Assembly: GCA_903877885.1 (NCBI GenBank)
Contig: CAIRFN010000005.1
Location: forward strand, 17,956-81,955
DNA length: 64,000 bases
Direction of reading: 5' to 3'
Origin: an uncultured Candidatus Berkelbacteria bacterium
Lineage (GTDB): Bacteria; Patescibacteriota; UBA1384; UBA12157
Shown: positions 7,394-37,741 of the stretch, piece after piece
Position numbering within the stretch: the stretch's first letter is position 1
How the letters are laid out: each line of letters opens with the position of its first letter
Position numbers and translations under genes: made by a program
Notes under the pieces: model-generated
The model's database searches: none
What the model was told of the DNA's origin: nothing
Seen by the model: the letters and a program-made list of their open reading frames with translations, nothing else

Positions 7394-7648
7394 TTATTTT
7401 TTTAACCCTAAATCTTTAATCAATTTCTCGTATTTCTTGACTTCGTTTTTCTTGAGGTAATTCAGCAAACGGCGGCGTTTTCCCACCATCATCAAAAGTC
7501 CGCGACGAGAATCTTGATCTTTGTTGTGCTTTTTCAAATGTTTAGCTAATTCCAGAATCTTCTCTGTTAAAAGCGCAACTTGAACATCGGTTGAACCGGT
7601 GTCATTTTTGTGTGATTGGTACTTTTTGACCAAATCTTGTTTTTCCAT
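7394..7648 (-). CDS. rpsO: 30S ribosomal protein S15
   Basis: Sequence ..[50 protein letters not shown].. The start is trimmed to the internal ATG at 7648, which has an AGGAG RBS. The ORF track extends to 7681. Confidence 0.9.
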
Positions 7649-7776
7649 GTTTTTCTCCTGTTCGTTTATTCCAGATACCACCAGAATAAACCATCCCGAT
7701 AATCGGGCGATTAATTAATTCTTTAATTGATTGTAACAGAAAACTTGCCAAAAAGCAATAAATTCTGGTTAGTCAC

Positions 7777-7805
7777 ATTGACAAAAGCTCAAAAACATGG
7801 TAGTA
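7777..7805 (+). promoter_or_regulatory. Near-consensus sigma70-type promoter (TTGACA, 17-bp spacer, TAGTAT)
   Basis: ttgaca at 7777-7782 and tagtat at 7800-7805. It precedes the GC-rich gene at 7856. Confidence 0.55.
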
Positions 7806-7855
7806 TTTATCATTATGACTGATCTGGCTATCTAATCTGAAAGAAGGGTACGGAT

Positions 7856-8209
7856 ATGGTTATGGACGTGCGACACGTCAAAATCAACAACAACCTCTCG
7901 ATTATCGTAAGCTGCGGTAGAGTTACGATTAACGCAGGGCATGAATCGGATAACACCGGTTTGTCTTTCACCCTCCCCAATGATGTCAGCGAAGCGATCC
8001 TTGAAAGATCCGACACTGATGAACAACTGACCTGCAACTGCTACCCAATAGCTATGTTGCTACGAGGATTAGACTTAACGCTAACCGCTCTTCTGTATAG
8101 CGCAAAAAGCCCTGAAGAGTTTCAGGAAAGCTACGAGACGCTAAGTAGAGGCCTGGAAAACGTTAACCGCGACATGATATGCCTTATGCAAGCACGTCAA
8201 GGAAAGTAA
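7856..8209 (+). CDS. Hypothetical protein in a GC-rich single-gene island
   Basis: 117-aa ORF with higher GC than its surroundings. It has its own promoter and a strong terminator (8226-8257). Confidence 0.45.
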   Translation: MVMDVRHVKINNNLSIIVSCGRVTINAGHESDNTGLSFTLPNDVSEAILERSDTDEQLTCNCYPIAMLLRGLDLTLTALLYSAKSPEEFQESYETLSRGLENVNRDMICLMQARQGK

Positions 8210-8225
8210 TAGGCGTATCCGAGCA

Positions 8226-8257
8226 GGCGCCAGGGTTTCTACCCTGGCGCCTTTTTC
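8226..8257 (+). terminator. Rho-independent terminator
   Basis: Hairpin ggcgccaggg-tttcta-ccctggcgcc followed by ttttt. Confidence 0.75.
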
Positions 8258-8399
8258 ATTTTAGAGAACAGAAAATTTTGTTTATGACAATGACTTGACA
8301 AAGCTTGATTTCGAGAGAGAGTAAACCATTTAAAGCCCACCCCGGAGGCGGGCTTTAGGTTTAAATGATTTAGATGAAAGATTTTGATATAATTAATCT

Positions 8400-8834
8400 A
8401 TGCGAATTGAAATTGACCAAAGCGGAAAATTGGAAGACACACATAAACCTACTGTTGTGGGATTCTCGAATAGTACCAGCAAAACTGTGATTATTTTAGC
8501 AACCGAAAAGCAAAAATTGCAGAAATTTTTCCGCAATATTGGTAAACCAAATGTTTACCGTTACAAAACATTCGCTATCATGATTTTTCTCTTACTAGAG
8601 CACAAGCATTTGTCTCAAATAATTATTGATACCGAATATGTCGGTCAAGAAGCTGTAATCAAAAATTATTTGTTAGAACTATTCCGGAAAACCCGTAAAA
8701 ATTTGCTTAAAAATGTAATTATCTTTAAACAAATCGGCAAGAAATCACAAGCTCATATTGTGTCATACAATGCTTATAGGACCAAAAAAGCTGATCTTAA
8801 AATTTGCGCTAAAGATATTGAAAAATTTGTATAA
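8400..8834 (+). CDS. Hypothetical protein (144 aa)
   Basis: Intact ORF. No family recognised. Confidence 0.4.
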   Translation: MRIEIDQSGKLEDTHKPTVVGFSNSTSKTVIILATEKQKLQKFFRNIGKPNVYRYKTFAIMIFLLLEHKHLSQIIIDTEYVGQEAVIKNYLLELFRKTRKNLLKNVIIFKQIGKKSQAHIVSYNAYRTKKADLKICAKDIEKFV

Positions 8835-8969
8835 AAAAAGATCGAGTGTTTAATGAATATTTAAGGCTGGCCTAGCCCTCGATTTTCATCGAAGCGCCAT
8901 ACGGTCGATATCCCACCCGATTCTTGATTATATTATACTTTTAAATTTGATTTTTGTCAAGCTCAAAAA

Positions 8970-10127
8970 CTAGTTCTGTACTTTGCTTTTTTGCCAGTCG
9001 CGGATTTTTTGAATCACTTCATGACCACGAGTTTCGAGACTTTCACCAGCTAAATTGAAAGCCGCGGCGGCTTCGTGACCGCCGCCGCCAAATAATCTGG
9101 CGATAGCAGAAACGTCAACTCCGGCGCGAGCGGCCCGGAATGAGCCATGAAGACCATCATTTTTTTCAGAAAGTAACATCGCAAAATCAATGTTTGGCGC
9201 AGTTTTTAAGAGTTCATCTAAAACACCCGAAGAGGCCGAATCATCAGCGCCAGCATCTGCAAAATCTTGGCGCTTGATTGCCGACCAAATAAATTTGGAT
9301 TGAGCTTCGTCGTGAACATTTTCCAAAACTCGACCCCAAAGTTTTAAGGTAGATAAAGTTTTGGTTTTGAAAATCCATTTGATAATTTCTTGCTGTCTGG
9401 CTCCGGCGGCTACCAATTGCGCCGCCACAGTAAAAGATTTTGGGGTTGTATTAGCATTTTGAAAACTGCCGGTGTCGACAATAATACCGGTTAACAAAGC
9501 AGTGGCCACATCAACATCAAGCAAAGGTTTTTCGCGGCTAAGTGATTCAACCAAAGCGACCAAAATTTCCGCGGTCGAGGTTGCGGTTAAATCCACCCAG
9601 TTAACCTTACCAAAATAATCATTACCCGGGTGATGATCAATATTAACCACTGGAGTTTCATAAAATAAATCTGTATTTTTGTCGTAAATTGTGCCAAGTC
9701 GATCTAAATCTGGCGCATCCAAAACCACAATCAAATCATATTTAAACGCGCCTTGAGAGAAAGTCACATCTTCAGGTCGAAATGAACCGTTAATTGGAGT
9801 TATGACCACATTCAATTTATTTTCTTCTGGCAAATTTTTGTAAGATAATTTATCAACTTTAATTTTACTGGTATTAACCGAAATGATAAAATCTTTTGTA
9901 CCTGAAAAATTTGAACTTAAGTTTTCTTTACCAGGCAAAAATCGCAAATTTTCTGGTAAAACTTCAGAAGTCACGGCTGTCACTTCTTTGCCGAGTTTTT
10001 TGAGTACCAAAGACAGAGCAATCATTGAGCCCAAAGCATCACCATCTGGGTTGACATGGCTTAAAATCAAAACACGCTGTGCAGAACGCAACAATTCAAT
10101 TGTTTGCTGTTTGGGAGTTAATTCCAC
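8970..10127 (-). CDS. nrnA: DHH/DHHA1 phosphoesterase (NrnA-like oligoribonuclease and pAp phosphatase)
   Basis: 385 aa. N-terminal HVNPDGDALGS DHH motif and C-terminal GGGH DHHA1 motif. Confidence 0.85.
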   Translation of the reverse strand: MELTPKQQTIELLRSAQRVLILSHVNPDGDALGSMIALSLVLKKLGKEVTAVTSEVLPENLRFLPGKENLSSNFSGTKDFIISVNTSKIKVDKLSYKNLPEENKLNVVITPINGSFRPEDVTFSQGAFKYDLIVVLDAPDLDRLGTIYDKNTDLFYETPVVNIDHHPGNDYFGKVNWVDLTATSTAEILVALVESLSREKPLLDVDVATALLTGIIVDTGSFQNANTTPKSFTVAAQLVAAGARQQEIIKWIFKTKTLSTLKLWGRVLENVHDEAQSKFIWSAIKRQDFADAGADDSASSGVLDELLKTAPNIDFAMLLSEKNDGLHGSFRAARAGVDVSAIARLFGGGGHEAAAAFNLAGESLETRGHEVIQKIRDWQKSKVQN

Positions 10128-11344: not shown

Positions 11345-11372
11345 AAAATAGTATCTGGTGTACAGAGTAACA

Positions 11373-11408
11373 AAGGACAGTCCTTAAACGCGTAAAAGGA
11401 CTGTCCTT
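11373..11408. repeat. REP-like palindromic element (aaggacagtcctt arms), copy 1
   Basis: aaggacagtcctt-aaacgcgtaa-aaggactgtcctt followed by tttt. Located between the convergent genes lepB and 11469..12995. Confidence 0.8.
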
Positions 11409-11468
11409 TTAAATTATAGATCGCCACGGTCTGCTGACCTCGCGATGACAATTTTTTTAGATCTATCT

Positions 11469-13145: not shown

Positions 13146-14177
13146 TTAACTCGCTAATTTAAGAACTAATAAGTCGAGGGCCACTTTTGGCTCAACCTGA
13201 CCGGTTTTCATCGCCAAATCGTTTTCCATTAATTCATGGTAGATTTTTTTCAGTTCTATCATATTGTAATTCTTAATTAAATTTAGGCTTTTACCGGCCA
13301 CAAACGGATGCAATCCAGCCCGTTTCGACAGCTCCCACTGCGAATTTACTCCGCGCTCGGCAAAATCCATCGTAATTAACAGGTTCCGATATTGATAAAC
13401 AATCATCGACAAAATATAGAGTTCATTTTCGCCATTATCTAAAAGTCGGTGTAATTCGTATAATGATTTTTTGACGTTTCGACTAGCGACCGCGTCAACC
13501 AGAGCAAAAATATCGCTGGAAGTTTGCGGTTTAACCAAGAGTTCGATATTTTGAACTGTAATAATATTGTCATCCTCGAGCCGGTGTGAGTCTTTATCGA
13601 ACACCGACATCGGGGATCCAGATCCCGGATCCTGAAGCCTTCCGGTCCGGGATGACAGACCTTTAAAAGTTGCAAGTTTGGCAATTTCATTTCCTAACCG
13701 CCACAAATCGGCGCCAACATATTCAAATAATTTTTGAACACCATCAGATGTAATCGTACCATTTAATTTAGCAACTTCTTCGCGAATCCAGGTTTTTGCA
13801 CCTTGTTCATCAAGCGGTTTAAATTCTTGGGTTTTTTGTTTAGCTAATTTTTTGTAAAGCGATGTCCGTTTATCTGGCACGCCTGCTTCAGCAAAAACCA
13901 AAACGGTTGTTTCCGGGACTTTCGGCAAAAATTCGCCGATTTTTTCTTGTTCATCCTTTTTTCCTTCTAACAACAAATTTTCAATAATCACCAGCCGACT
14001 TTTGGCTAAAAATGGATAGGCCAAAATCTGCCGAATCATAAAATCGGCTTTAGTCGTCTTGCCGTCAATCACCGCTAAATTTGTGTCCCCTAAAGACGCG
14101 GAAATATACTTTTCCTTCATCTCTTTAATTTTTTGTTTTAGTCTGTAAGTATCCTCGCCAAAAAGAAATAATATCAT
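13146..14177 (-). CDS. holA: DNA polymerase III delta subunit-like (HolA)
   Basis: 343 aa. N-terminus MILFLFGEDTYRLKQKIKEMKEKY and overall delta-subunit layout. It carries an in-frame family-A element at 13568-13657. Confidence 0.65.
   Translation of the reverse strand: MILFLFGEDTYRLKQKIKEMKEKYISASLGDTNLAVIDGKTTKADFMIRQILAYPFLAKSRLVIIENLLLEGKKDEQEKIGEFLPKVPETTVLVFAEAGVPDKRTSLYKKLAKQKTQEFKPLDEQGAKTWIREEVAKLNGTITSDGVQKLFEYVGADLWRLGNEIAKLATFKGLSSRTGRLQDPGSGSPMSVFDKDSHRLEDDNIITVQNIELLVKPQTSSDIFALVDAVASRNVKKSLYELHRLLDNGENELYILSMIVYQYRNLLITMDFAERGVNSQWELSKRAGLHPFVAGKSLNLIKNYNMIELKKIYHELMENDLAMKTGQVEPKVALDLLVLKLAS
13568..13657. repeat. Family-A MITE-like palindromic element (tgtcatcctcgag...gggatgaca) inserted in frame in holA
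   Basis: Termini tgtcatcctcgagccgg.. and ..ccggtccgggatgaca. Translated through as ..RLQDPGSGSPMSVFDKDSHRLEDDN.. Confidence 0.8.
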
Positions 14178-15637: not shown

Positions 15638-15691
15638 CCAACACGCGGTGGCCTCCACCGCTTTTTAAATTCTGGCAATCTTCTAACAAAT

Positions 15692-15727
15692 AAGGACAGT
15701 CCTTCAGCGCGTTAAAGGACTGTCCTT
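15692..15727. repeat. REP-like palindromic element, copy 2
   Basis: aaggacagtcctt-cagcgcgtta-aaggactgtcctt followed by ttt. Located just after the fabH-like gene. Confidence 0.8.
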
Positions 15728-15735
15728 TTATTCTT

Positions 15736-15826
15736 TGTCATCCTCGAGCCGGAGGGTACTCCGACATCAAGGATCCAGAAAATTCCTGGATCCCAGATCC
15801 TGAAGCCTTCCAATCTGGGATGACAT
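15736..15826. repeat. Family-A MITE-like element, intergenic copy
   Basis: tgtcatcctcgagccggagggtactccgacatcaaggatccag + aaaattc + ctggatcccagatcctgaagccttccaatctgggatgaca. Confidence 0.8.
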
Positions 15827-16835: not shown

Positions 16836-16864
16836 TTGACAAATGGGCGATTTTATGGTACAAT
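16836..16864 (+). promoter_or_regulatory. Near-consensus promoter TTGACA, 17-bp spacer, extended TGgTACAAT
   Basis: ccttgacaaatgggcgattttatggtacaat. It drives the GC-rich lipoprotein gene. Confidence 0.55.
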
Positions 16865-16954
16865 TTATTGTTGCAAAGTTGACTTAGTCAATTGTGACCG
16901 TTAGCAATTTTGCTGACATCGACCCCCGCCCGAGGCGGGAGAAGGAACCTTAAA

Positions 16955-17446
16955 ATGAAAACTTCCCTGAACTTGATGGTAATGGTTGTACTGGCGGTTT
17001 TTTCGGCGCTCCTGATGACAGGTTGCGGCGAAACGGCCGATCCGGGCAATCTCGCCGCCAAATCGTCAATCGCCATCACCGGCGATGTCTCCCCGACCGC
17101 CAACGGCGCGACGTTCCATGTCTGCCTGACCAACCCGAATCCCGGCACGGTCAGTAAGAACGTGAAGGCGAATATCTTCATCAACCCAAACAGGAAGCTG
17201 GAAGTCTTTGCTGAAACCACCGTGGGTACAAACATCACCAGTTGGCTGTACCTCGACATCCCCAATGGGATGAAAATCGGTACCGTGACCCTGTGCCAGT
17301 GGGACGTCGAGAACAACTGGATTGTTGTTCCGATTGACCCAGTCATGGCAAAAAACCCCAGGAGCATCGACGTCGGCGACATCCTGGCACAGACGCCAAC
17401 AACACAAAACCAACGCTACCTTTATGGAACGTTGGTCCCCAAATAA
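16955..17446 (+). CDS. Lipoprotein (signal peptide with LMTGC lipobox) in a GC-rich island
   Basis: MKTSLNLMVMVVLAVFSALLMTGCGE. The start is trimmed to the ATG at 16955. Markedly higher GC than the flanks. Own promoter and terminator. Confidence 0.55.
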   Translation: MKTSLNLMVMVVLAVFSALLMTGCGETADPGNLAAKSSIAITGDVSPTANGATFHVCLTNPNPGTVSKNVKANIFINPNRKLEVFAETTVGTNITSWLYLDIPNGMKIGTVTLCQWDVENNWIVVPIDPVMAKNPRSIDVGDILAQTPTTQNQRYLYGTLVPK

Positions 17447-17464
17447 CACCGCAATAAAATGCGA

Positions 17465-17502
17465 AACTCCCCCTTTCATTACGATTGGGGGAGTTTTGTT
17501 TT
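17465..17502 (+). terminator. Rho-independent terminator
   Basis: aactccccc ... gggggagtt followed by ttgtttt. Confidence 0.7.
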
Positions 17503-20246: not shown

Positions 20247-21482
20247 ATGATGAAAGAAAAAATGAAAATATTAGCCATTGAATCAAGTTGTGACGAAACC
20301 GCGGCCGCCGTTATTGAAAATAATAACGGTGAGATTAAGATACATTCAAACATAATTTCTAGTCAAATTGATATTCACAAACAATTTGGTGGCGTTTTTC
20401 CCGAAATTGCTTCGCGTGCTCATGCCGAAAATATTATTCCGGTGATTAAAGAATCTTTAATTAATAGTATTGATGATGTCGATCTAATCGCTGTCACTGA
20501 CGGACCAGGTTTAATCGGTTCGCTTTTGGTTGGCGTCAATGTAGCCAAAACCTTGAGTTTCGCAAATAATATTCCGATCTTACCAATCAACCACTGGCTT
20601 GGTCATATCTATTCCTGTTTTACCGATGATAAAAATTTACCTCGATTCCCTCTTCTCGCCCTTATTGTTTCCGGTGGTCATACTGGTTTGGTGTTGATGA
20701 AAAGTCATACCGAGTACATTCAAATCGGCGCTACACTTGATGACGCCGCTGGCGAAGCTTTTGATAAAGTAGCAAAACTCTTAGAATTAGGTTATCCTGG
20801 CGGACCGGCGATTTCAGCTGCGGCTGAAGAATATAAAAAAGAATGTCATTCCGGTCCAGATGGTAATACTGGAACCGGAATCCAGGCCTGGATTCCCGAT
20901 GTCGAGTTGCCACTCGGCTCGAGAATGACAATTTCCTTTCCGAGAGCCATGCTTAATTCTAAAGATTATAATTTAATGTCAATTAAATTTCCGCGGGCCA
21001 TGATGCAATCAGGGAACTATAATTTCTCATTTTCAGGGTTAAAAACTTCTGTACTAAACAAAGTTCGAACTTTAACTGAAAATTGGAAATTGAGAACTGA
21101 AAATTTTGCCCCCGTAGTTGCCTATGAATTTCAACAATGCGTCATTGATATTTTAATTGGTAAAACTTTGAAAGCGGCTGAAGAATTTAAGCCAAAATCA
21201 ATTCTTCTTTGCGGCGGCGTTTCAGCAAATAAGGAATTAAGAGAACAAATGAAAAAAGCTATTTTGTCATTCCGGACCCCTCCTGTCATTCCGGACCGGT
21301 TGGCAACAGGATCCGGAATCCAGGAAAAAACGAATGACAAGATTAATTTTTTCTGTCCGCCCATCGAATTAACCGGCGATAACGCGGCCATGATCGGTAT
21401 TGCCGCAGCCTATCAAATCAACGCTGGCGTTAAACCAACTACATATAATAATGTAAATGCGAACTCAAATTTGAAATTGTAA
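20247..21482 (+). CDS. tsaD: tRNA N6-adenosine threonylcarbamoyltransferase TsaD (Kae1/Gcp family)
   Basis: (M)KILAIESSCDETAAAVIEN.. N-terminus with the His metal site. At 411 aa it is longer than typical, because of two in-frame element insertions plus a 17-codon tandem duplication. An alternative start exists at the ATG at 20262. Confidence 0.9.
   Translation: MMKEKMKILAIESSCDETAAAVIENNNGEIKIHSNIISSQIDIHKQFGGVFPEIASRAHAENIIPVIKESLINSIDDVDLIAVTDGPGLIGSLLVGVNVAKTLSFANNIPILPINHWLGHIYSCFTDDKNLPRFPLLALIVSGGHTGLVLMKSHTEYIQIGATLDDAAGEAFDKVAKLLELGYPGGPAISAAAEEYKKECHSGPDGNTGTGIQAWIPDVELPLGSRMTISFPRAMLNSKDYNLMSIKFPRAMMQSGNYNFSFSGLKTSVLNKVRTLTENWKLRTENFAPVVAYEFQQCVIDILIGKTLKAAEEFKPKSILLCGGVSANKELREQMKKAILSFRTPPVIPDRLATGSGIQEKTNDKINFFCPPIELTGDNAAMIGIAAAYQINAGVKPTTYNNVNANSNLKL
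20844..20930. repeat. Family-A MITE-like element in frame in tsaD (copy 1)
   Basis: tgtcattccggtccagatggtaatactggaaccggaatccag gc ctggattcccgatgtcgagttgccactcggctcgagaatgaca. Translated as ..CHSGPDGNTGTGIQAWIPDVELPLGSRMT.. Confidence 0.8.
21263..21340. repeat. Family-A MITE-like element in frame in tsaD (copy 2, with a duplicated left terminus)
   Basis: ttgtcattccggacccctcc tgtcattccggaccggttggcaacaggatccggaatccag gaaaaaacgaatgacaa. Translated as ..ILSFRTPPVIPDRLATGSGIQEKTNDK.. Confidence 0.75.
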
Positions 21483-21888: not shown

Positions 21889-24039
21889 ATGCAAGAATTA
21901 CCATCAAATTACAATTATAAAGAAACTGAAGACAAAATTTATGCGCTGTGGGAAGAAGCCGGCGCGTTTAAACCAGTTATTGATCCTAATCAAAAACCAT
22001 ATACGATTGTGATTCCGCCACCAAATGTGACTGGTTCTCTTCATATGGGTCATGCTTTAAATAACACAATTCAAGATATTTTAATTCGTCGCTCTCGGAT
22101 GCGTGGCGTGCCAACTCTATGGATTCCCGGAACTGATCATGCCGGTATTGCTACTCAAAATGTGGTGGAAAAAAAGTTGGCTAAAGAAGGCAAAACTCGT
22201 CAAGAACTTGGGCGCGAAGAGTTCACCAAAGAAGTTTGGGATTGGGTTGATCAATATGGCAACACTATTATTGGACAGCTCAAGAAAATGGGTTGTTCTT
22301 GCGATTGGTCCAGACAGCGTTTTACCATGGATGAAGGCTATTCAGAAGCGGTTAAAGTCGCGTTCAAAAATTACTATGATAAGGGTTATATTTATCAAGG
22401 TGAACGAGTGATCAACTGGTGTACCCGTTGTCAAACTGCCTTATCTGATATCGAAGTCGAACATATTGATCAAAACGCTAAACTATATTTTTTTAAATAT
22501 GATAAAAATTTTCCGATCACCATTGCCACTACGCGACCAGAGACAAAGCTTGGCGATACAGGTGTAGCGGTCAATCCGAAAGACAAAAGATATCAGGATT
22601 ACATTGGTAAAACTTTCAAGGTTAATTTTTGCGGTGTCGACCGCGAGATTCGGGTTTTTGCTGACATTAGTATTGATATAACCTTTGGCACTGGCGCCGT
22701 CGGAGTCACTCCAGCGCATTCTTTGGTTGACTATGAAATGGCCGAAAAAAATGGCTTGGATATTATTAAAGTGATTGATCAATATGGGAAAATGACCAAA
22801 GAAGCGGGAACAGAATTTGAAGGTTTGAAAGCAACTGAAGCGCAAGCCAAAGTCATCGAAATGTTGGAAAAAGCTGGGCTGATGGAAAAAGTGGAAGAAA
22901 TCCAAAACGCGATCAGTGTGTGTTATCGCTGTAATCGACCGATTGAGCCTCAACCGTCAAAACAATGGTTTTTAAAGATGTCGGAATTAGCAAAACCAGC
23001 GATTGAAGCGGTTAAATCTGGTCAAATTAAATTCACACCAGACCGTTGGACCAAAGTTTATTTAGACTGGATGGAAAATTTGCGCGACTGGTGCATTTCT
23101 CGCCAAATCTGGTGGGGGCACACCATTCCAATTGAAGGCGAAACTGATGTTTTGGACACTTGGTTTTCGTCAGCCTTGTGGCCGTTTGCCACACTTGGTT
23201 GGCCCAATAAAACTGAAGACCTAAAATATTTTTATCCGACCACCACACTTTCCACTGCCCGCGATATTATTTATCTGTGGGTGGCACGAATGATTTTTTC
23301 AGGGCTTGAATTTACCAACGAAATTCCATTTTCACAGGTTTATATTCATCCAACGGTTTTCAATAAAGAAGGTAAACGCATGTCCAAATCTTTGGGCACC
23401 GGCGTCGATCCTTTGGAACTGATCGAGAAATACGGTGCCGATGCCACGCGATTTGGTCTTACCTATATTAATACCGGGATTCAAGATTTGAAATTTGACG
23501 AAGAAGCTATTGGTGCTGGCAAAAAATTTGCCAATAAGTTGTGGAATATCACCAGATTCATGTTGATGAGCATTTGTCATTCCGGTCCGGATGGCTCCGG
23601 AACCGGAATCCAGGAAAATGATAATCTGGATTCCAGATCAGGTTGCCAACCAGTCTGGAATGACAAGATGGAACCAAGAACTGAAGCCGATAAAATCATT
23701 CTTGAAAAACTTAATGCCGTTATTAAATCAACTGACAAAAATCTTGATGAATTTAAATTTGGCCAAGCGGCGCATGATTTGTATGATTTCGTCTGGCACG
23801 ATTTGGCCGACGTATATATAGAAGAAAGCAAAGTGACCGCGAACGGTCATCCCGAGCCGAAGTCCGGCGAGGGAACCCCTGATTTTTCAGTATTACTTTA
23901 TGTAATAGTAACTTCGATTAAACTTTTGCACCCGATTATGCCGTTTGTAACAGAAGAAATCTGGCAAAAACTCTACGAAGATAAATTAGTTGATGAAAGA
24001 ATGCTGATTACGGCAAAATGGCCAAAAGCACAAGAATAG
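21889..24039 (+). CDS. valS: Valyl-tRNA synthetase (compact form)
   Basis: PPPNVTGSLHMGHAL HIGH region, KMSKS (GKRMSKSLG) and anticodon-binding region. Carries an in-frame family-A element at 23575-23665. Confidence 0.9.
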   Translation: MQELPSNYNYKETEDKIYALWEEAGAFKPVIDPNQKPYTIVIPPPNVTGSLHMGHALNNTIQDILIRRSRMRGVPTLWIPGTDHAGIATQNVVEKKLAKEGKTRQELGREEFTKEVWDWVDQYGNTIIGQLKKMGCSCDWSRQRFTMDEGYSEAVKVAFKNYYDKGYIYQGERVINWCTRCQTALSDIEVEHIDQNAKLYFFKYDKNFPITIATTRPETKLGDTGVAVNPKDKRYQDYIGKTFKVNFCGVDREIRVFADISIDITFGTGAVGVTPAHSLVDYEMAEKNGLDIIKVIDQYGKMTKEAGTEFEGLKATEAQAKVIEMLEKAGLMEKVEEIQNAISVCYRCNRPIEPQPSKQWFLKMSELAKPAIEAVKSGQIKFTPDRWTKVYLDWMENLRDWCISRQIWWGHTIPIEGETDVLDTWFSSALWPFATLGWPNKTEDLKYFYPTTTLSTARDIIYLWVARMIFSGLEFTNEIPFSQVYIHPTVFNKEGKRMSKSLGTGVDPLELIEKYGADATRFGLTYINTGIQDLKFDEEAIGAGKKFANKLWNITRFMLMSICHSGPDGSGTGIQENDNLDSRSGCQPVWNDKMEPRTEADKIILEKLNAVIKSTDKNLDEFKFGQAAHDLYDFVWHDLADVYIEESKVTANGHPEPKSGEGTPDFSVLLYVIVTSIKLLHPIMPFVTEEIWQKLYEDKLVDERMLITAKWPKAQE
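23575..23665. repeat. Family-A MITE-like element in frame in valS
   Basis: tgtcattccggtccggatggctccggaaccggaatccag...ctggattccagatcaggttgccaaccagtctggaatgaca. Translated as ..CHSGPDGSGTGIQENDNLDSRSGCQPVWNDK.. Confidence 0.8.
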
Positions 24040-24049: not shown

Positions 24050-24068
24050 AAATTCGAATTTTGAATTT
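24050..24068. repeat. Outer 19-bp inverted repeat, left arm (aaattcgaattttgaattt)
   Basis: Its reverse complement is identical to 24481-24499. Lies within gaaattc-type short tandem repeats. Confidence 0.75.
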
Positions 24069-24074
24069 TTTCTT

Positions 24075-24451
24075 TGTCATTCCAGACCGGCCGGAGGCAG
24101 GATCTGGAATCCAGAATAAAATGAATAATTATTATGTGTATATTTTGACTAGCAGAAGAAACGGCACTTTATATATTGGCGTAACTAATGATCTGATTAA
24201 AAGAATATGGGAACATAAAAACCATAGTAAAAAAGGATTTACAGAAAAATATAACATTTGCCAATTGATATACTTTGAGCAAACTAATAATATAAACTCC
24301 GCTATTAATAGAGAAAAACAATTAAAATCATGGAATAGAAAATGGAAACTTGACTTAATTGAGAAAGTCAATCCTGATTGGAAAGATTTATATCAAGAAT
24401 TGTTGTAACTGGATTCCCGATGTCGGATGCCATCCGACTCGAGAATGACAA
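24075..24451 (+). mobile_element. Full-length family-A element carrying a GIY-YIG nuclease ORF between its two terminal modules
   Basis: Left module tgtcattccagaccggccggaggcaggatctggaatccag (24075-24114). ORF 24121-24408. Right module ctggattcccgatgtcggatgccatccgactcgagaatgaca (24410-24451). The short MITE copies (e.g. 38811-38904) are these two modules joined directly. Confidence 0.75.
24121..24408 (+). CDS. GIY-YIG nuclease family protein (UPF0213/YhbQ-like, about 95 aa)
   Basis: ..YYVYILTSRRNGTLYIGVTNDLIKRIWEHKN.. with the GIY...YIG motifs. The start is trimmed to the ATG at 24121. The track frame is open from 24061 through the left terminal module. Confidence 0.85.
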   Translation: MNNYYVYILTSRRNGTLYIGVTNDLIKRIWEHKNHSKKGFTEKYNICQLIYFEQTNNINSAINREKQLKSWNRKWKLDLIEKVNPDWKDLYQELL

Positions 24452-30224: not shown

Positions 30225-31046
30225 ATGAACAATGATTTAGATGACAATTCATACCTTCAAGGACCAACTGCCGAAACCTTAGCTATGGCTGATGAATTAA
30301 CAGCTAATGATTTTGAAACGCTAAAAAATCAGTACGGCGAGAAGAAACTATTTGATAAAGTTTTTCGATTTGACGCTAATTACTATTCGGCGGCCGATGA
30401 ATTAAGAGCTAGACGGCATCAACTGGTCATCAATTTTTATCCAACCGATAAAGATCTTTCCTTGTCTAACAAACAAAAAAATCAAATTGTTGATCTTTTA
30501 GCTAATTCCCCAACTGACGCTAATCAATTACTAATAGATCTAAAAACAGTCAATCCAGATCTAACGATTAACCCTGGAATAGATGTTAATAGTATTATTG
30601 CGCGAAGTCAATTGATTAAAAATGCGTTTTCTGTACTTGAAAATCTAATGCTTGATAATTTTAGTTATGACTATCTTCAAGACACAATGTTATTCTATAA
30701 AATCGAAGATCAAAAGCTAGCGGAACTTGAAATTCAAATTAAAAATATCTCTGAAAAAATGGCTGATCAACTCGAAAAATTAGCTAAAAACGATTTTAAA
30801 ACTGATGAAACAATCGCGACCGACGCAATTGGAATATTAGCCAAACTCGGTCGAACGCAACTATTTGTCAGTGAAGGAAATGAAGGAAAGAACCTAGGTC
30901 AATTAGTTGAAATCTTTGGCCGATTCGATTTAGCTCTAACTGCGGCAAAAAATTTAAAGACAAAAATCTCTGGCACCAATGACAATCTAGAGCAGTCAGC
31001 ATTAGCAGAAATTAAGCTACTTCTAAAAAACGATATCGATATTTAA
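30225..31046 (+). CDS. Hypothetical protein (273 aa)
   Basis: Intact ORF with AT-rich native composition. No family recognised. Confidence 0.45.
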   Translation: MNNDLDDNSYLQGPTAETLAMADELTANDFETLKNQYGEKKLFDKVFRFDANYYSAADELRARRHQLVINFYPTDKDLSLSNKQKNQIVDLLANSPTDANQLLIDLKTVNPDLTINPGIDVNSIIARSQLIKNAFSVLENLMLDNFSYDYLQDTMLFYKIEDQKLAELEIQIKNISEKMADQLEKLAKNDFKTDETIATDAIGILAKLGRTQLFVSEGNEGKNLGQLVEIFGRFDLALTAAKNLKTKISGTNDNLEQSALAEIKLLLKNDIDI

Positions 31047-31086
31047 AATCAACTGGATTTGACAGATTATTCCCCCTTGACAACAG

Positions 31087-31115
31087 GGGAGTTTTGTGGT
31101 ATATTTATATGTTCT
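31087..31115 (+). promoter_or_regulatory. Near-consensus promoter TTGACA, 17-bp spacer, extended TGgTATATT
   Basis: ccttgacaacaggggagttttgtggtatatt. It sits within a weak cccc/gggg hairpin and drives the GC-rich gene at 31279. A second TTGACA lies at 31069. Confidence 0.5.
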
Positions 31116-31278
31116 GAAATTGATGAGGTGAAAGATTATTTTACCCCTCAAGTCAGTTGCATAGATTGACAATTGAATACAAATATTACTCTGACCCAGT
31201 GGGCAAATTAGCCCCTGGCAAGGCACCAGTTTAACCTGATGCTGCGTCCGGGCTGATGAGGCCCAAGGAGAAAGAAAA

Positions 31279-32241
31279 ATGCAGAAATTCCTCTTGATTG
31301 CCATGATGGCAATCACTCTGTTATCCCTCACCAACAGCGCCTTCGGTCAGAAGGTGGTTGGAACACTGGTCGTCAAAGCGACAACCAGTACGACAACAAG
31401 CGGTGTTCCTGTGCCTGACGGTGCAGTTGAACAGCCGCCAACGCCGAAAGCGCAAACAACCCCTGCGCCAGTAGTGTCCGACCGTGTCAATATCAATGAC
31501 CTTCGGGTCAAAAAATTGACAATCGACAACGTGAAAGTACATGTCGATCGTCGGTCAGGTAATGTCGTAGCGGACGGGGCAAGACCAGCAAGTCATCATG
31601 TTGCCCGTCGCCCGACCATCGGAACCAGTCCGGTCGTAGTCAAAAAAATCTCCGGATTAGAGACGACTGTCTACGGCGGCAGGAAGTCGACTGGTTTGGT
31701 CGGGAAAGTCGCAAAAATCGACACTCGGCTAACCGACGCCGAGACTAACATCTCGACATTAAATGAAAACTGCACCACAGCCCAAACAACTGCAGATGGA
31801 GCTAAAACAGCTGCAGAGGAAGCCAAAGCGATGGCAACTGGAGCTAACGAGAAAATAAATAGTTTAGCTGCCGGAATCGGGCTGACTAAGTGGGTTGCCT
31901 GGATCGCTTTGATCTTGGCGATTTGCTTGGCCTGCTTGGCTGGCTATAACTACTTCCGAAAGGAAAGAACTGGTGTGAGTAAGGACGAGCTTGACACTTT
32001 AGGGCGTCAGGTTGTTATTAACAATATCAACCTCAAGGATCAGCTTGAAGGAATCAACCGAGAGATCGCCGATCTTAAGCGAAGTATCAACACTTCGTCG
32101 GAACCCGACGCCGAACCGGAGGCAACCCCTAGGCCGCCGTTCGACTTCTCGCGTTTTCACATGCCAAAACCCGAGCCTGAACCGCTCGCCGCGACTAAGG
32201 AAGATCTTCAGGGCGCAGTCGACGACGCGGTCATAGCATAA
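31279..32241 (+). CDS. Secreted protein with signal peptide, coiled-coil region and a single C-terminal TM anchor. GC-rich island gene
   Basis: MQKFLLIAMMAITLLSLTNSAFGQ signal. TM at LTKWVAWIALILAICLACLAGY. GC clearly above the flanks. AAGGAG RBS 8 nt before the ATG. Confidence 0.5.
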   Translation: MQKFLLIAMMAITLLSLTNSAFGQKVVGTLVVKATTSTTTSGVPVPDGAVEQPPTPKAQTTPAPVVSDRVNINDLRVKKLTIDNVKVHVDRRSGNVVADGARPASHHVARRPTIGTSPVVVKKISGLETTVYGGRKSTGLVGKVAKIDTRLTDAETNISTLNENCTTAQTTADGAKTAAEEAKAMATGANEKINSLAAGIGLTKWVAWIALILAICLACLAGYNYFRKERTGVSKDELDTLGRQVVINNINLKDQLEGINREIADLKRSINTSSEPDAEPEATPRPPFDFSRFHMPKPEPEPLAATKEDLQGAVDDAVIA

Positions 32242-32248
32242 CACAACA

Positions 32249-32296
32249 AAACCCCAACGAAATCTTGCAGGAGGCAAGAGAGTAGTTGGGGTTTTA
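32249..32296 (+). terminator. Rho-independent terminator (long stem)
   Basis: aaaccccaac...cttgcaggaggcaag...gttggggtttt. Confidence 0.65.
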
Positions 32297-32311
32297 AAAT
32301 ACTTAAAAATA

Positions 32312-32348
32312 GATTCCGGATCCTGTCGCCAACCGGTCCGGAATGACA
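32312..32348. repeat. Family-A solo half-module
   Basis: gattccggatcctgtcgccaaccggtccggaatgaca. Confidence 0.65.
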
Positions 32349-32355
32349 TTTGACG

Positions 32356-33969
32356 TCACATCAAATTCCAATTCATCTTAATATCAACCTTGCCTTTATT
32401 AGGCGGTAATTTGATTCTATTTGGCACGAATAAGCCCTCGCTTAAACCAGCTATTTCGCAGAAATTTTCCATAGCCGTCTTAGGAACAAATTTTCCTTCA
32501 TACCAACCACCGGCTGCATCAATTTCTTTTTGCATAAGGTCCGAAGCAATCTTTTCATACTGATTTTGTAAACTTATTCGTTTAATGAAATTCCAGGCGC
32601 CTTTGGCTGCTTTAATTTCTTGGCGTAAATGATCTAATGACATTGAGCCGGAAATAGTTTCCATAGATCGTTCAGCTCTTTCGGTTGGCTCTAGTATTGA
32701 AGCCGACCCGGCACCAACTCCACCACTGCCGCTGGCTTCTATAATCGGCGCCGAAGGCGGTAAAACCGGTTCTGGCGCACTTTCGGCTGGTTCTGACGGT
32801 ATTGCGGGTGATTCAAATACCGAAGGCGCAGCTGGCGTCGCCGGTAATTCTGGACTTGACACTGGCACTGGAGCGACTGCCGGTTGAGGTAAATCGTTTA
32901 ATTTCCACGGCGAATTTTCGCCTTCTGCTGGCTTACGCGGTTTGGAACCAAAAATCTTCGCGCCTAAAATACCGAAAGCCGACGCTATTTGAGCCCAATC
33001 CTTAAATTCCAAACCACGACCTAAAACATGACCAATCTCGTCAACAAAAGGTTCGATCGTTAATTTTGCCCCCATTTGAATGGCTTCAGCAGATGCCCTC
33101 GCATACTCGGACATATTATTATATATGAAATGACCGCCATGCATATTCCAGACAACCCTGTGACCAGCATCAAGTGCCACTTGGCCAACCTTTGTCGCCT
33201 CCGCCGCTTTATGAAAACCAAGGGGAATACCATTGAGTAAACCTGTTGCCAAAGTCGCGACCGATGATACAATCCCTCGACCTAATTTCCAGTTCTGTTC
33301 GCTTTTCATATTTTTCTGCTGCGCTTCAATGACAGCATTTTCTTTTTCTTTAATGCCAATTATCAGATCTGCAAAATTATCATCGGTCATTTCTGCACCA
33401 TGTTCGCGTAGAGCTAACTTTGCTACTTCAATTGCTTCTGTTAATTCATTTTGAGCCGCCAGTTCTAAATTAGTACGCTTATTACCCCAACCAACTTCTT
33501 CAACAACTTGAATTAAGCCGTCAATACCAACCTGTAATCCCTTGCTCCAAAGCGGAGCGGTAAAAACACCAGCACCACTCATTACCATCACTGTCGCTGT
33601 ACCAAGACCGCCAGAAACTTTAGATAAAATTCCCATCCACTTGCGATATCGCGGCGTTTTTTCCCATTCGCCAAGAGTATCTAGCTCAATACTTCCATCT
33701 TCTTTTTCTGTGTAAAATCTTTCACCGACACGATTAAAAAATTGATTGATTTCGCCAAGTGTTTTACTTCCAAACGCCCCTTTGTATCTTTCAGCGGCTC
33801 TGGCGTCATCACGATCAACTAATTCTTTAATTTCATCAATCAACCATTGTTCATAGTTTAATGGCTCTTCTTCAGGTTCAACTGGCGTTTCATGAAGCGT
33901 GATTTCAGGACCTAATTCTGGCCTGACAGTGGCTTCGGCAGAATGATCAATCGGAGTTGTTTCTTGCAT
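32356..33969 (-). CDS. Hypothetical protein (537 aa) with a Pro/Ala/Ser-rich linker
   Basis: Intact ORF with the low-complexity stretch ..PAVAPVPVSSPELPATPAAPSVFESPAIPSEPAESAPEPVLPPSAP.. No family recognised. Confidence 0.5.
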   Translation of the reverse strand: MQETTPIDHSAEATVRPELGPEITLHETPVEPEEEPLNYEQWLIDEIKELVDRDDARAAERYKGAFGSKTLGEINQFFNRVGERFYTEKEDGSIELDTLGEWEKTPRYRKWMGILSKVSGGLGTATVMVMSGAGVFTAPLWSKGLQVGIDGLIQVVEEVGWGNKRTNLELAAQNELTEAIEVAKLALREHGAEMTDDNFADLIIGIKEKENAVIEAQQKNMKSEQNWKLGRGIVSSVATLATGLLNGIPLGFHKAAEATKVGQVALDAGHRVVWNMHGGHFIYNNMSEYARASAEAIQMGAKLTIEPFVDEIGHVLGRGLEFKDWAQIASAFGILGAKIFGSKPRKPAEGENSPWKLNDLPQPAVAPVPVSSPELPATPAAPSVFESPAIPSEPAESAPEPVLPPSAPIIEASGSGGVGAGSASILEPTERAERSMETISGSMSLDHLRQEIKAAKGAWNFIKRISLQNQYEKIASDLMQKEIDAAGGWYEGKFVPKTAMENFCEIAGLSEGLFVPNRIKLPPNKGKVDIKMNWNLM

Positions 33970-33972
33970 AAT

Positions 33973-34311
33973 TTACTCCTTTTGACTTTTTACTTTTTTG
34001 GCCAAGTCGATCAGTTTGATTTTTTCCAACAAGGTTTCTTCAACCACTAACTGACCAAGATTGATGTTTTTGCTTTCCAAAAACTTTAGAGTTTCCTCGT
34101 CTTGATCTTTAGCCATCAAATCAGTAAAAATCGATTTGTCTGCTTCAGCCAATAAATCGTCGATTCTAACCGCCACCCGACTTTGAATCCCCCGATTTAA
34201 CTGGTTTATGAGTTCCGCTTTTTTATCATCTGACAGATGGTCAAGTCCCATGAGTTCAAAGATATCGCCTTCGATTAAATCTTCCGGCGTAACATTAACT
34301 AAGTTAGACAT
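33973..34311 (-). CDS. Hypothetical protein (112 aa)
   Basis: Intact ORF. RBS ggaggcaaatg. Directly upstream of, and co-oriented with, the 537-aa gene. Confidence 0.4.
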   Translation of the reverse strand: MSNLVNVTPEDLIEGDIFELMGLDHLSDDKKAELINQLNRGIQSRVAVRIDDLLAEADKSIFTDLMAKDQDEETLKFLESKNINLGQLVVEETLLEKIKLIDLAKKVKSQKE

Positions 34312-34350
34312 TTGCCTCCTTACTTTACCTTTCTAGCATAGATTAACCTC

Positions 34351-34379
34351 TTGACAAATGTCAAATTATATGGTATATT
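34351..34379 (+). promoter_or_regulatory. Near-consensus promoter whose -35 lies in the palindrome TTGACAAATGTCAA. 17-bp spacer, extended TGgTATATT
   Basis: cctcttgacaaatgtcaaattatatggtatatt. It shares the CTCTTGACAAAT(A)GTCAA motif with the promoter at 36780. Confidence 0.55.
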
Positions 34380-34448
34380 ACGATGTTATTGCTAGAAGAA
34401 TATTTTAGCAATTTAGTATATTAAAAATCAAGCTTAAGGAGAGGAAAA

Positions 34449-34949
34449 ATGCCAGAAAAGACTACCGGTGAGCCGGTGAAGTTCATCCCTTTGTCCATGG
34501 TTGGTTCTCTCGTCAATATGGTTGTTGAGAAAATCAAGGCATGGCTGGTCACCACCTATTTAAAATCGATCATTGATCGATTGGAAAAAGTCGAAGCGGA
34601 TTTAAACCCGCCCGACGAGTTCTTCACACAGCAATTCGATGTGATTAACGAAGGGATAAAAAAAATCATCGATGAGCGCTTGGCGAAGGTTCGTCAGGAG
34701 GTCTACGACCAACTGAAGCAAGAGCTTAGTTCGTCGCTGACGATTCTCTCCTCCGAGGAAGAAGCCAAGACGATCGAGCAGGCTCGCGCCGAGCGCGATG
34801 CTCGAAACAAAGAGTTGCGCGACATTGCTCCACCAACGCCGCCTGCGCCAACTCCAACGACTACCGTCAAACGCACAGAGCGCGTCGTCAAACCCGACAC
34901 CGCTACCCCCACCGTCAAGAAGCCGCGGCTCGCGCCACCGAGCATCTAA
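34449..34949 (+). CDS. Hypothetical coiled-coil protein with a Pro/Thr-rich C-terminus. GC-rich island
   Basis: 166 aa. AAGGAG RBS. Elevated GC. Confidence 0.45.
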   Translation: MPEKTTGEPVKFIPLSMVGSLVNMVVEKIKAWLVTTYLKSIIDRLEKVEADLNPPDEFFTQQFDVINEGIKKIIDERLAKVRQEVYDQLKQELSSSLTILSSEEEAKTIEQARAERDARNKELRDIAPPTPPAPTPTTTVKRTERVVKPDTATPTVKKPRLAPPSI

Positions 34950-34966
34950 AATCAAGGAGAAGGAAC

Positions 34967-36037
34967 ATGGGAATCGAAACCAAAGAACCCCGCCAAATCG
35001 GGGCGCTGAACATTATGCTATCAGGACTTGTCCTGGATGAGCAGAACCCTCCGAAGGATGGATGGGTCTACTACAAAATGATGGAAAATGAAACCCTGGT
35101 ATTAAATTTTGTCGACAGTCGCGAAAAAGTCCTCGAAGCGGCCGAAGCCGTATTTAACACCTCGGCAGAAATTTCCGTGGCCAAACGCGCGCACAAGGAA
35201 TTCAAAGCGCTTTTGGTTGGGTACAAAGAGGCTGTCACCGCCTTTGAAAAAGCGGTTCATAGCCCAGGCGTAGTACAAACGCAAGAGGTTATCGGTCTCG
35301 GCGGTCGTAATCGTTGGCAACGGATAATTATCTACGACCTCGAAGATGAAGAGATCGAGGGTGATATGGTCGCCTGTCGAATCTACGGTGATGCCCGGAG
35401 TTGGTTTTTTAACCCGTTCTGGTGTGTGAACCTGGATAACGGCGGCGTCTACCCGGTTTTGGCACCGATCGGTAAACAAGCGGTCATCGTCGACCGTAAC
35501 GGTAGCACCATCCGGTTCTGCTGTTACTCTCACGAAGACGGTTGGGTTGTCGAGACATTCGACAAGCGTAAGCCTGTCAAAGCGCCACCGACACTACCGA
35601 AAACGACCGAGAAACTGGCACCGCCCCCACCGCCTGACGACAAACCGGAAGCAACAGTGATATCGGAAGTCCCCATCATCTGCCCGGAATGTGAAGCCGA
35701 AATCGGCGTACCGTTCCTCGACTATCAGGAGGCAGGCACGATTAGCTGTCCGAACTGTAAAACCAGTATCGGACCATTAATCAATGGCTCCACCCTCCTG
35801 ACCGCCGACGCCGTCGGTGTCAAGGTGGGACTGAATGAACAAATGATAGTGACGCTCGGCGAACAAAACCAGCCGATCTACACCATCGCCGGATTGGCCG
35901 GTATGGGCGACAGCGATCTTCGCAAGATGCTAAAGCTCAAACGAACATCGGAAGCGGCCACGATTATCTTGGCTGCCCAGGCATTTATGCCTGACGACAA
36001 TCCCGAGGAAGATGCGGATCAGGAGGATCCGCAATAA
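34967..36037 (+). CDS. Hypothetical protein with a C-terminal zinc ribbon (CPECEAEIG...CPNCKTSIG). GC-rich island
   Basis: 356 aa. AAGGAG RBS. Elevated GC. Tandem terminators downstream. Confidence 0.5.
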   Translation: MGIETKEPRQIGALNIMLSGLVLDEQNPPKDGWVYYKMMENETLVLNFVDSREKVLEAAEAVFNTSAEISVAKRAHKEFKALLVGYKEAVTAFEKAVHSPGVVQTQEVIGLGGRNRWQRIIIYDLEDEEIEGDMVACRIYGDARSWFFNPFWCVNLDNGGVYPVLAPIGKQAVIVDRNGSTIRFCCYSHEDGWVVETFDKRKPVKAPPTLPKTTEKLAPPPPPDDKPEATVISEVPIICPECEAEIGVPFLDYQEAGTISCPNCKTSIGPLINGSTLLTADAVGVKVGLNEQMIVTLGEQNQPIYTIAGLAGMGDSDLRKMLKLKRTSEAATIILAAQAFMPDDNPEEDADQEDPQ

Positions 36038-36055
36038 CATCAAAAGGAGGAATTA

Positions 36056-36121
36056 GGCCGGCTCGAAAGAGCCGGCCTTTTCCATACTTAAAAGCCCGGC
36101 GCGTAAGCGCCGGGCTTTTTC
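36056..36121 (+). terminator. Tandem rho-independent terminators
   Basis: ggccggctc-gaaa-gagccggcc tttt, then agcccggcgc-gtaa-gcgccgggct ttttt. Confidence 0.75.
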
Positions 36122-36139
36122 GTGGCATCAAAATGCCAA

Positions 36140-36703: not shown

Positions 36704-36763
36704 TTCCTCCTTTTTTTATTCAATTTTCAAAGAACATTGTATTATACCTTAAAATTGTCTGAA

Positions 36764-36833
36764 TGTCAAGAGAAAGCTCTTGACAAATAGTCAACAATGT
36801 AGTATAGTTGGTTGTTATCTTCCGGAAGATAAC
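36764..36833 (+). promoter_or_regulatory. Promoter plus operator complex: a TGTCAAGA-n6-TCTTGACA palindrome overlapping the -35, TTGACA, 17-bp spacer, TATAGT, then a perfect 20-bp palindrome gttatcttccggaagataac
   Basis: tgtcaagagaaagctcttgacaaatagtcaacaatgtagtatagt... The palindrome at 36814-36833 sits at about +5 to +25. Confidence 0.55.
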
Positions 36834-36938
36834 ATTGGCAAAGAGAAAAGGAGTTTCGTAGCTAAGAAGTTCGTAAGCTACGTAGCGCATTACAGATAGT
36901 TTCTGCCTAATCAAGCCTATACACAAGGAGACGAGTCA

Positions 36939-37664: not shown

Positions 37665-37716
37665 TATTTTCTCTGGGAGGAGAGCAGTCGAAACAGGAGG
37701 TCTAGACTTAAATCAC

Positions 37717-37741
37717 AGCGCTCATGATGAGCGCTTTTTAA
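37717..37741 (+). terminator. Rho-independent terminator
   Basis: agcgctca-tga-tgagcgct followed by ttttt. Confidence 0.75.

Follow-up and report, generated by a model that had tools for sequence, protein, structure and literature searches.

A small gene with its own predicted promoter and terminator in a variable slot between rpsO and a DHH phosphoesterase gene of an uncultured Candidatus Berkelbacteria bacterium

What kind of unit is a single small gene that stands among housekeeping genes with a promoter and a terminator of its own? We consider here such a gene, an open reading frame (ORF) for 117 amino acids (aa) that we call X, at positions 7856-8209 of the + strand in a stretch of 64,000 nucleotides from an uncultured Candidatus Berkelbacteria bacterium (contig CAIRFN010000005.1, positions 17,956 to 81,955; hereafter, the window). 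The closest described counterparts are the phage morons, extra genes of phages and prophages whose GC content is unlike that of the surrounding genes and which come with a promoter and a terminator of their own (PMC3594210). A preliminary description of this DNA had presented X as one of at least four 'moron'-like units. In part this likeness stands: the X unit is a single gene with a strong predicted promoter and an intrinsic terminator of its own, it separates two genes that stand side by side in related genomes, and its GC content is somewhat above that of its immediate surroundings. In contrast to a moron, X lies on a housekeeping chromosome, flanked by rpsO-pnp and by an nrnA-like gene and rpsT, with no phage or prophage; it is old, fixed at one chromosomal site and without phage or plasmid relatives; and its composition falls within the gene-to-gene range of the host. 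X thus shares three of four moron features (insertion, promoter and terminator), and the phage context is missing; its GC deviation could be read either way.

X fits best among the lineage-specific accessory genes of variable chromosomal slots. Like the ORFans and 'genomic islets' found in such slots, it is present or absent among close relatives at one conserved junction, shares its slot with alternative cargo (a HicA module, a DUF5678 gene with an aspartic-protease gene, and other ORFans), evolves fast and belongs to no annotated family. It differs from them in three respects: no mobility signature, such as an integrase or a tRNA, is present; a direct repeat that contains a −35 hexamer forms part of the cassette and also marks its bounds; and it has persisted until synonymous sites are saturated. 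We consider it probable that the unit (7778-8262) represents an accessory cassette, old and lineage-restricted, whose variable slot has conserved housekeeping genes on either side, rpsO on the left and an nrnA-like DHH gene on the right. The host is probably a small-genome bacterium, for gene content and the DUF5663 and DUF5678 families suggest a small genome of the Patescibacteria-like kind. As such the finding is ordinary, for small-genome bacteria carry lineage-specific orphans between housekeeping blocks. What it places on record is a small protein family under selection, confidently folding and without known relatives or a fold match in PDB or BFVD, together with a documented rpsO/nrnA-like slot with alternative cargo and a deletion junction at a −35 repeat that illustrates a route of cassette loss.

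A gene unit inserted between rpsO and the DHH gene

The left border of the slot is rpsO (7394-7648, − strand; ribosomal protein S15, Pfam PF00312, E 1e-33), which is 90-95% identical in the lineages that carry X, and the right border is a gene for an NrnA-like phosphoesterase with DHH and DHHA1 domains (8970-10127, − strand; Pfam PF01368 and PF02272), which is 79-89% identical in close relatives and which we call the DHH gene. Between X and the DHH gene lies a second cargo ORF of 144 aa (8400-8834, + strand; GC 0.317) with no family match. The neighbours of X in the window are rnj, udg, pnp, rpsO, the DHH gene, rpsT, a lepB-like gene and holA. A metagenome scan with the DHH protein gave 38 related loci, in which the order exo-fabH-holA-DUF2207-lepB-rpsT-DHH-rpsO-pnp-...-udg-rnj is widely conserved. 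The gap between the DHH gene and rpsO is 60-210 bp long and free of genes in eleven of these loci (L015, L018, L019, L021, L025, L026, L027, L029, L035, L043 and L050). In others it is occupied: by a 184-aa ORF in L013, a 146-aa ORF and a HicA toxin gene (PF07927, E 2e-16) in L014, a 144-aa ORF in L020, and two ORFs in L022. A hidden Markov model of the X family, run on the related loci, detected X only in the window, L008, L009/L010, L011 and L012. All four homologues for which DNA context is available (L008, L009, L011 and L012) are divergent from rpsO-pnp and convergent with the DHH gene, which is followed by rpsT. The second cargo ORF of the window is absent from L008 and L012, and other genes stand in its place in L011 and L013; in L011, X is followed by the DUF5678 gene and the aspartic-protease gene. 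Because the junction is compact in some relatives and holds alternative cargo in others, the rpsO-DHH junction is a slot for variable accessory genes, and, set against the ancestral adjacency of the DHH gene and rpsO, X is an insertion. The window contains no tRNA, no recombinase was found in the slot of any locus, and the mobility signature of integrase, transposase or tRNA is accordingly absent.

X is a genuine gene under purifying selection, and it represents an unannotated family of small proteins. A word-indexed search of 5.8 billion proteins returned X itself as the sole match, on at least 12 contigs with constant context, and the contigs bearing identical X are at least 99.99% identical to the window. 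Searched exhaustively with phmmer, 1.84 billion representatives yielded four full-length homologues, which are 115-122 aa long and 36-46% identical to X (E 1.5e-24 to 3.5e-10), and a profile search of the 5.8 billion proteins raised the family to seven members. The homology search that the preliminary description had suggested for this ORF has thus yielded a real family, of seven sequences.

The X unit has, at the level of sequence, a promoter and a terminator of its own, and here the preliminary description holds in every particular. The putative promoter (7778-7806, + strand) consists of TTGACA (7778-7783), a 17-nt spacer and TAGTAT (7801-7806), with a TG at 7798-7799, two bases 5′ of the −10 hexamer, and it scores 10 of 12 with the TG extension in a promoter scan. 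Strong sigma-70/sigma-A promoters with an extended −10 element carry TGn, the 'TRTG' −16 region of Gram-positive bacteria. The X promoter resembles them in its TTGACA, its 17-nt spacer and its TG before TAnnnT, a form that housekeeping genes of the window share, and it differs in its predicted −10, TAGTAT, which matches the consensus at four of six positions and is below consensus strength. A sequence resembling a Shine-Dalgarno element, GAAGGG (7843-7848, + strand), is read 7 nt before the X ATG, and AGAGG or GGAGG occupies the equivalent position in the homologous loci. Starting 15 nt past the stop codon is a hairpin (8225-8262 with its tail, + strand) with a 12-bp stem, 9 of whose pairs are G-C, and a 4-nt loop (together 8225-8252), followed by the T-rich tail TTTTTCATTTT. 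Its folding free energy (dG) is −27.0 kcal/mol, compared with −10.3 ± 2.4 in shuffled sequences (z = −6.9), and it has the makings of an intrinsic (Rho-independent) terminator: a GC-rich stem-loop with a U-tract directly after it, just 3′ of the stop codon. The promoter is kept in all four homologous loci with DNA context, in the form TTGAC(A/G)-17-TAnnnT with TG and at an equal relative position, and each of these loci has a different GC hairpin with a T-run directly 3′ of the X stop.

On the opposite strand, rpsO has a predicted promoter (7730-7758, − strand) with a −35 TTGCTT (7758-7753), a 17-nt spacer and TGT-TACAAT (−10 at 7735-7730), and a counterpart, TTGCCA-17-TAATAT, is found at the equivalent place in L008 and L012. 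The X and rpsO promoters stand back-to-back, with their −35 hexamers 19 bp apart. Judged by consensus and by conservation in relatives, X is probably transcribed as an autonomous single gene from this promoter, which is likely strong, constitutive and of the housekeeping type, and transcription would halt at the strong terminator hairpin before reaching the convergent DHH side. Both kinds of signal are common nearby: the first 20 kb of the window hold 72 promoter-like sites (51 ± 7 expected) and 41 terminator-like sites (20.5 ± 4.8 expected), so that single-gene units with both signals are normal in this genome.

History of the cassette at its site

How old is the cassette? Between the window and the other carriers, RNase J is 93% identical, PNPase 86-88%, S15 90-95% and the DHH protein 79-84%; for X the figure is 39-46%. 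The nonsynonymous divergence (dN) of X is 0.49-0.62, compared with about 0.10 for pnp, and in the close pair L008/L012 X has a ratio of nonsynonymous to synonymous divergence (dN/dS) of 0.26, compared with 0.026 for pnp and 0.009 for rpsO. Comparisons between most carriers are saturated at synonymous sites, and since X occupies the same site in these lineages, X is not recent. We propose that the ancestor of a sub-clade acquired the cassette in a single event, after which the cassette was inherited vertically at one site. Its product, which would be a soluble acidic protein of 117 aa with a conserved beta domain and a more variable helical hairpin, would have diverged about 5-13 times faster than the products of neighbouring genes while still under purifying selection, and the cassette would have been lost at least once, by deletion between direct repeats of 11-12 nt that hold the −35 hexamer. 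In a neighbour-joining tree of PNPase, the carriers and L013 cluster together.

The proposed loss is seen in L013, which is the closest relative by its DHH protein (89%) yet has no X. In the window a unit of roughly 517 bp is bounded by an 11-12-nt direct repeat, the left copy of which, TTGACAAAAGCT (7778-7789, + strand), includes the −35 hexamer of the X promoter; the right copy, TTGACAAAGCT, lies at 8296-8306 (+ strand), within an element that extends over 8296-8327. Beside the rpsO promoter, L013 reads TTGACAAAAGCT|TGATTTTGAGAG, that is, window positions 7778-7789 joined to 8307 onward, and what follows TTGACAAAAGCT there, TGATTTTGAGAGAG...GTAAA, matches the window sequence 3′ of the right copy. 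This junction was found by short-word blastn; a global alignment of the window with L013 at low gap cost gave no information. Four other lineages have X at this site, which makes its deletion in L013 the more parsimonious account.

Several observations touch the same boundary. The element at 8296-8327 (+ strand) has the form TTGACAAAGCTTGATTTC(GA)nGTAAA, with TGATTTC(GA)n-GTAAA 3′ of the repeat; it is shared with L013 only, where it lies 5′ of different cargo, and its GA tract has about 4.5 units in the window and 8.5 in L013. It lacks a properly spaced −10 and is followed by a hairpin (8334-8358, dG −16.8). In two independent Logan assemblies of the same strain (L002 and L005), contigs break at 8257-8262, 5-10 nt past the X terminator, and these breaks may hint at population variation, or at a repeat, where the X unit borders on the cargo that follows.

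A number of points weigh against the history that we propose. At saturated synonymous sites, fast vertical divergence and allele replacement are inseparable. A neighbour-joining tree of the DHH protein groups the window, L008 and L013, and places the carrier L011 with the X-less L015 and L018, so that a second gain of X, or its transfer between lineages, is possible; the trees carry no support values. Promoter consensus accounts for most of the repeat TTGACAAA(A)GCT, whose second copy could therefore be partly coincidental. The promoter and terminator of X are themselves called from the letters of the DNA. Finally, every carrier shows a mild rise in the GC content at third codon positions (GC3) of X (0.43-0.53), as would fit either an old foreign origin or codon use linked to expression.

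Could the carriers instead have exchanged cassette alleles? According to this alternative, divergent X alleles were swapped by recombination in the conserved flanks, and the identity of about 40% records replacement from a diverse pool. The sharp contrast between flanks that are 79-95% identical and an X that is 39-46% identical is what such exchange would leave, the pairwise X identities among carriers are star-like (34-46%), in the DHH tree L011 does not join the other carriers, and the cargo of the slot clearly turns over. However, in the only close pair, L008/L012, X has moved in step with its flanks (dS, the synonymous divergence, is 0.78 for X and 0.58 for pnp); the intergenic DNA 5′ of X can be aligned only between lineages whose backbones are close; and no donor pool is seen, the family having seven members in 5.8 billion proteins. 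We regard allele exchange as unlikely, though it is the alternative that fares best.

A single gain followed by vertical inheritance also has to be set against the converse idea that X belonged to the ancient core of the whole clade and was lost again and again, in which case X would be no insertion and the empty junctions would be repeated deletions. One deletion is documented, that in L013. Yet at least 11 lineages, including the most distant (DHH protein 47-62% identical), have a scarless junction of 60-210 bp, the carriers are confined to one sub-clade, and the exhaustive phmmer search finds no diverged homologue elsewhere; we hold this idea to be very improbable.

Composition and promoter form

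The window has a GC content of 40.1% (37.1% in intergenic and 40.6% in coding DNA). The preliminary description had singled out X as GC-rich relative to its flanks, and windowed analysis bears out a local excess: in 400-bp windows GC reaches 0.455 over X, with 0.36 on its left and 0.32-0.33 on its right, or 9-13 points above the flanks. These flanks are intergenic DNA and the AT-rich small genes rpsO (0.36) and the 144-aa ORF (0.32). By the standard of the window's genes, however, X is normal. Its GC content is 46.6% (z = 1.05, 86th percentile among 57 ORFs) and its GC3 52.5% (z = 1.48 among the same ORFs); 12% of all 354-bp windows are as GC-rich as X or more so; and for contrast with 300-bp flanks (0.096) it takes ninth place among 56 genes, with atpA, pnp and atpD ahead of it. 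Likewise, in the homologous loci X has a GC content of 0.38-0.47 and a GC3 of 0.43-0.50, near the values of rpsO and the DHH gene. High expression is a possible cause of the raised GC3, and the GC3 of rpsO is raised too. The GC bump of X is real and unexceptional, and falls short of compositional evidence for a foreign origin. We note as a caution that a local GC bump, a consensus promoter and a terminator do not amount to evidence of phage-type acquisition.

These figures bear directly on the proposal that X is a recent foreign gene, a phage-style moron or transfer islet, with an origin or regulon in common with the units at 16836, 31077 and 34351. That X has its own promoter and terminator, is inserted between genes adjacent in relatives, and exceeds the window mean in GC and GC3 would all accord with such an arrival. 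On the other hand, X is found at the same site in lineages with saturated synonymous sites, and so predates their split; it has no relatives in IMG/VR, among GenBank phages or in the PLSDB plasmids, and no phage genes lie nearby; and its GC excess stays inside the range that is normal for genes and is not greater in the homologous loci. A recent foreign acquisition, as argued from GC content, is therefore not supported.

The promoters give the proposal no firmer footing. Sites of the form TTGACA-N16-18-TAnnnT number 12 in the window, as against 2.19 ± 1.45 in shuffled sequences, and they stand 5′ of udg-rnj (3464, − strand), of the nrnA-like DHH gene (10200, − strand), of the S-adenosylmethionine (SAM) riboswitch and metK (40464, − strand) and of orphan genes. 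Outside the hexamers the promoters of the four units are on average 44% identical, compared with 36 ± 5% over all quartets, and among the 210 quartets of the ten promoters with a 17-nt spacer 10 are as similar. The four are thus slightly more alike than random TTGACA-17 quartets, but this quartet was picked after the fact and its likeness lies in known functional sub-elements: what the four share is an A-rich stretch 3′ of the −35 and (T/C)(A/G)TGG before the −10 (the extended −10, which the housekeeping udg-rnj promoter has too). The shared positions are functional promoter sub-elements. Similarly, a repeat family, D7, links the promoters at 31066, 34340 and 36769 (64-70% over 50 nt) and leaves out that of X. 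For the X unit, then, the alignment of promoters proposed in the preliminary description shows a similarity essentially no greater than expected of strong sigma-70 promoters. The X promoter is, on its sequence, the generic strong form of this organism rather than a mark of common origin or co-regulation, and the shared origin or regulon suggested for the four units is left without support. We consider the recent-foreign-gene proposal largely refuted, and give it scarcely any weight.

The remaining units, whose only link with X is the general promoter form, are more clearly distinct in composition than X, and it is plausible that they are acquired or fast-turnover genes. The unit at 16836-17502 was rightly described as one with a lipoprotein gene: it has a promoter at 16836, a true start at 16955, a lipobox LMTGC and a terminator-like hairpin. 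Its gene (16955-17446) is the most GC-rich of the window (GC3 0.70), and its product has no detectable homologue in 5.8 billion proteins. At the corresponding position, beside the 5′-3′ exonuclease gene, L013 has a different lipoprotein of 321 aa (L013 1321-2286). The promoter that had been cited at 31087 exists, with a true start at 31077; the one at 34351 is as first described. The region from 31000 to 38000 is a genuine GC-rich stretch, at 0.42-0.53 per kb as against 0.40, with GC3-rich ORFs at 31279-32241 (GC3 0.54), 34449-34949 and 34967-36037 (0.59-0.63 over 34449-36037), 36140-36703 (0.50) and 36939-37664 (0.61). These ORFs are driven, as predicted, by two overlapping divergent promoter pairs with palindromic −35 hexamers, at 34335-34379 and 36741-36808, and two of the promoters linked in D7 are of this paired kind. 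No Pfam family matched the ORFs of these units above its curated cut-off. Expression-linked GC3 was considered as an explanation for these units and fails for values of 0.6-0.7.

The X protein and other elements of the window

That X is a spurious ORF whose promoter and terminator make a non-coding RNA, a notion prompted by the lack of a known protein family or fold match, is already refuted by the selection test and deserves next to no credence, given a frame and length conserved in seven sequences, a conserved Shine-Dalgarno element, a confident fold prediction and a search of 7560-8420 against Rfam that returned nothing above chance.

What might the X protein do? X is a cytoplasmic protein with an isoelectric point (pI) of 4.8, and six of the seven family members have a pI of 4.5-5.1; no signal peptide or membrane segment was found in the family. 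The alignment of the seven sequences contains 13 invariant residues (R6, H7, S15, I16, T24, I25, N26, A27, S37, P41, L49, E56 and R114), concentrated in the N-terminal 41 residues. An AlphaFold2 model computed from this alignment (predicted local distance difference test score, pLDDT, 85.7; predicted template-modelling score, pTM, 0.69) has four beta strands within residues 6-39, together with a short helix at 42-50 and a long helical hairpin with arms at 55-82 and 86-115. The conserved part of X is the N-terminal four-stranded beta domain and the hairpin is more variable. Searches of all seven members against Pfam, NCBIfam, PHROGs and PADLOC gave nothing usable, the only PHROG match having an E value of 0.014 in one of the seven; neither PADLOC nor Pfam linked any member to a known toxin, antitoxin or defence family; and Foldseek found no match to the model with E at or below 1e-3 in PDB or BFVD. 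In L008 and L012, moreover, X is monocistronic, that is, without a paired-gene architecture.

Four apparent leads were set aside. A search of the X profile against PDB sequences returned only designed coiled coils, which are generic amphipathic helices. For the giant proteins P0006 and P0007, also returned by phmmer, the match is to a short motif that recurs 7-14 times in a repeat protein of the adhesin-like kind, and was rejected as homology. A 37-residue match in a metagenome-assembled genome of Terriglobales (L007), from a scan of a genome collection, is spurious. The likeness of GRVTINAG to the 'GRVTIP' of AbrB/SpoVT is accompanied by a different order of strands and helices and has no support from Pfam or Foldseek.

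Because X is small and acidic, gives no catalytic-family signal, pairs a conserved beta domain with a variable helical hairpin and shows a tenfold raised dN/dS, and because the slot elsewhere holds toxin-antitoxin and other accessory cargo, we offer the tentative guess, which may well be wrong, that it is no enzyme but a binding or oligomerising protein with a part in some fast-changing interaction, for example of the immunity or inhibitor type. A bolder combination would make the family a new class of fold, made up of small 'conflict' proteins that diversify fast (of the immunity, inhibitor or anti-phage type), and, at the same time, the rpsO-nrnA junction a slot for cassettes where single genes, ready to express, are gained and lost through direct repeats embedded in promoters, without a recombinase; that both should be true together we judge to be improbable.

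Several other elements of the window deserve mention, beginning with those beside X. The 5′ leader of rpsO (7649-7725, − strand) is conserved in L008, L011, L012, L014, L018, L020 and L029, where it runs in the order TAATCG, a first hairpin (CCCGATTATCGGG in the window), GGT, a second hairpin (TTATTCTGG...CTGGAATAA), ACGAAC and the Shine-Dalgarno element. RNAalifold, applied to the leader in eight relatives, gave 15 pairs, 8 of them with compensatory changes, and no Rfam family matched it; the leader is a candidate for an S15 autoregulatory leader of an undescribed type. On the other side of X, the 144-aa ORF (8400-8834) is preceded by TGATATAAT (8389-8400), which ends 5 nt before the ATG, and has no Shine-Dalgarno element, so its mRNA looks leaderless. 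Between the end of this ORF and the DHH stop is a perfect consensus promoter, TTGACA-17-TATAAT (12 of 12; 8960-8932, − strand), directed antisense into the ORF. Downstream of it, roughly 100 nt (in the 8826-8960 region) end in a T-run and have a dG of −25.6 kcal/mol (z −2.0), and the minus strand of 8826-8960 may possibly encode a small antisense RNA.

Farther away, the window contains two groups of interspersed repeats. The palindromic repeat AAAGGACAGTCCTT...AAGGACTGTCCTTT occurs in six copies (11372-11417, 15691-15736, 37752-37797, 39754-39799, 61460-61505 and 61823-61868), three of which are identical over 36 nt where none would be expected; the copies lie mostly at gene ends and were scored as terminator-like. 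The second group consists of short repeats with the inverted ends TGTCATTC(C/T)...GGAATGACA, of which about 24 copies were listed, some as tandem pairs; they resemble repetitive extragenic palindromic (REP) or miniature inverted-repeat transposable (MITE) elements. Examples are at 13618-13658, 15736-15826, 20888-20931, 21279-21329, 23626-23666 and 24070-24120, and further ones at 32309-32349, 38806-38905, 40179-40279, 46335-46426, 46710-46801 and 49554-49604. Two ORFs of the GIY-YIG type (24061-24408 and 45155-45481; GC 0.28-0.29) are 72% identical over 291 nt; the first has a Pfam GIY-YIG match, the second lies between the genes for the ATP synthase alpha and gamma subunits, and both look like mobile genes of the homing-endonuclease type. 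Finally, a SAM-I riboswitch (RF00162, 57.6 bits) is found at 40317-40413 (− strand), 5′ of metK (38922-40070), with its TTGACA promoter at 40464-40435.

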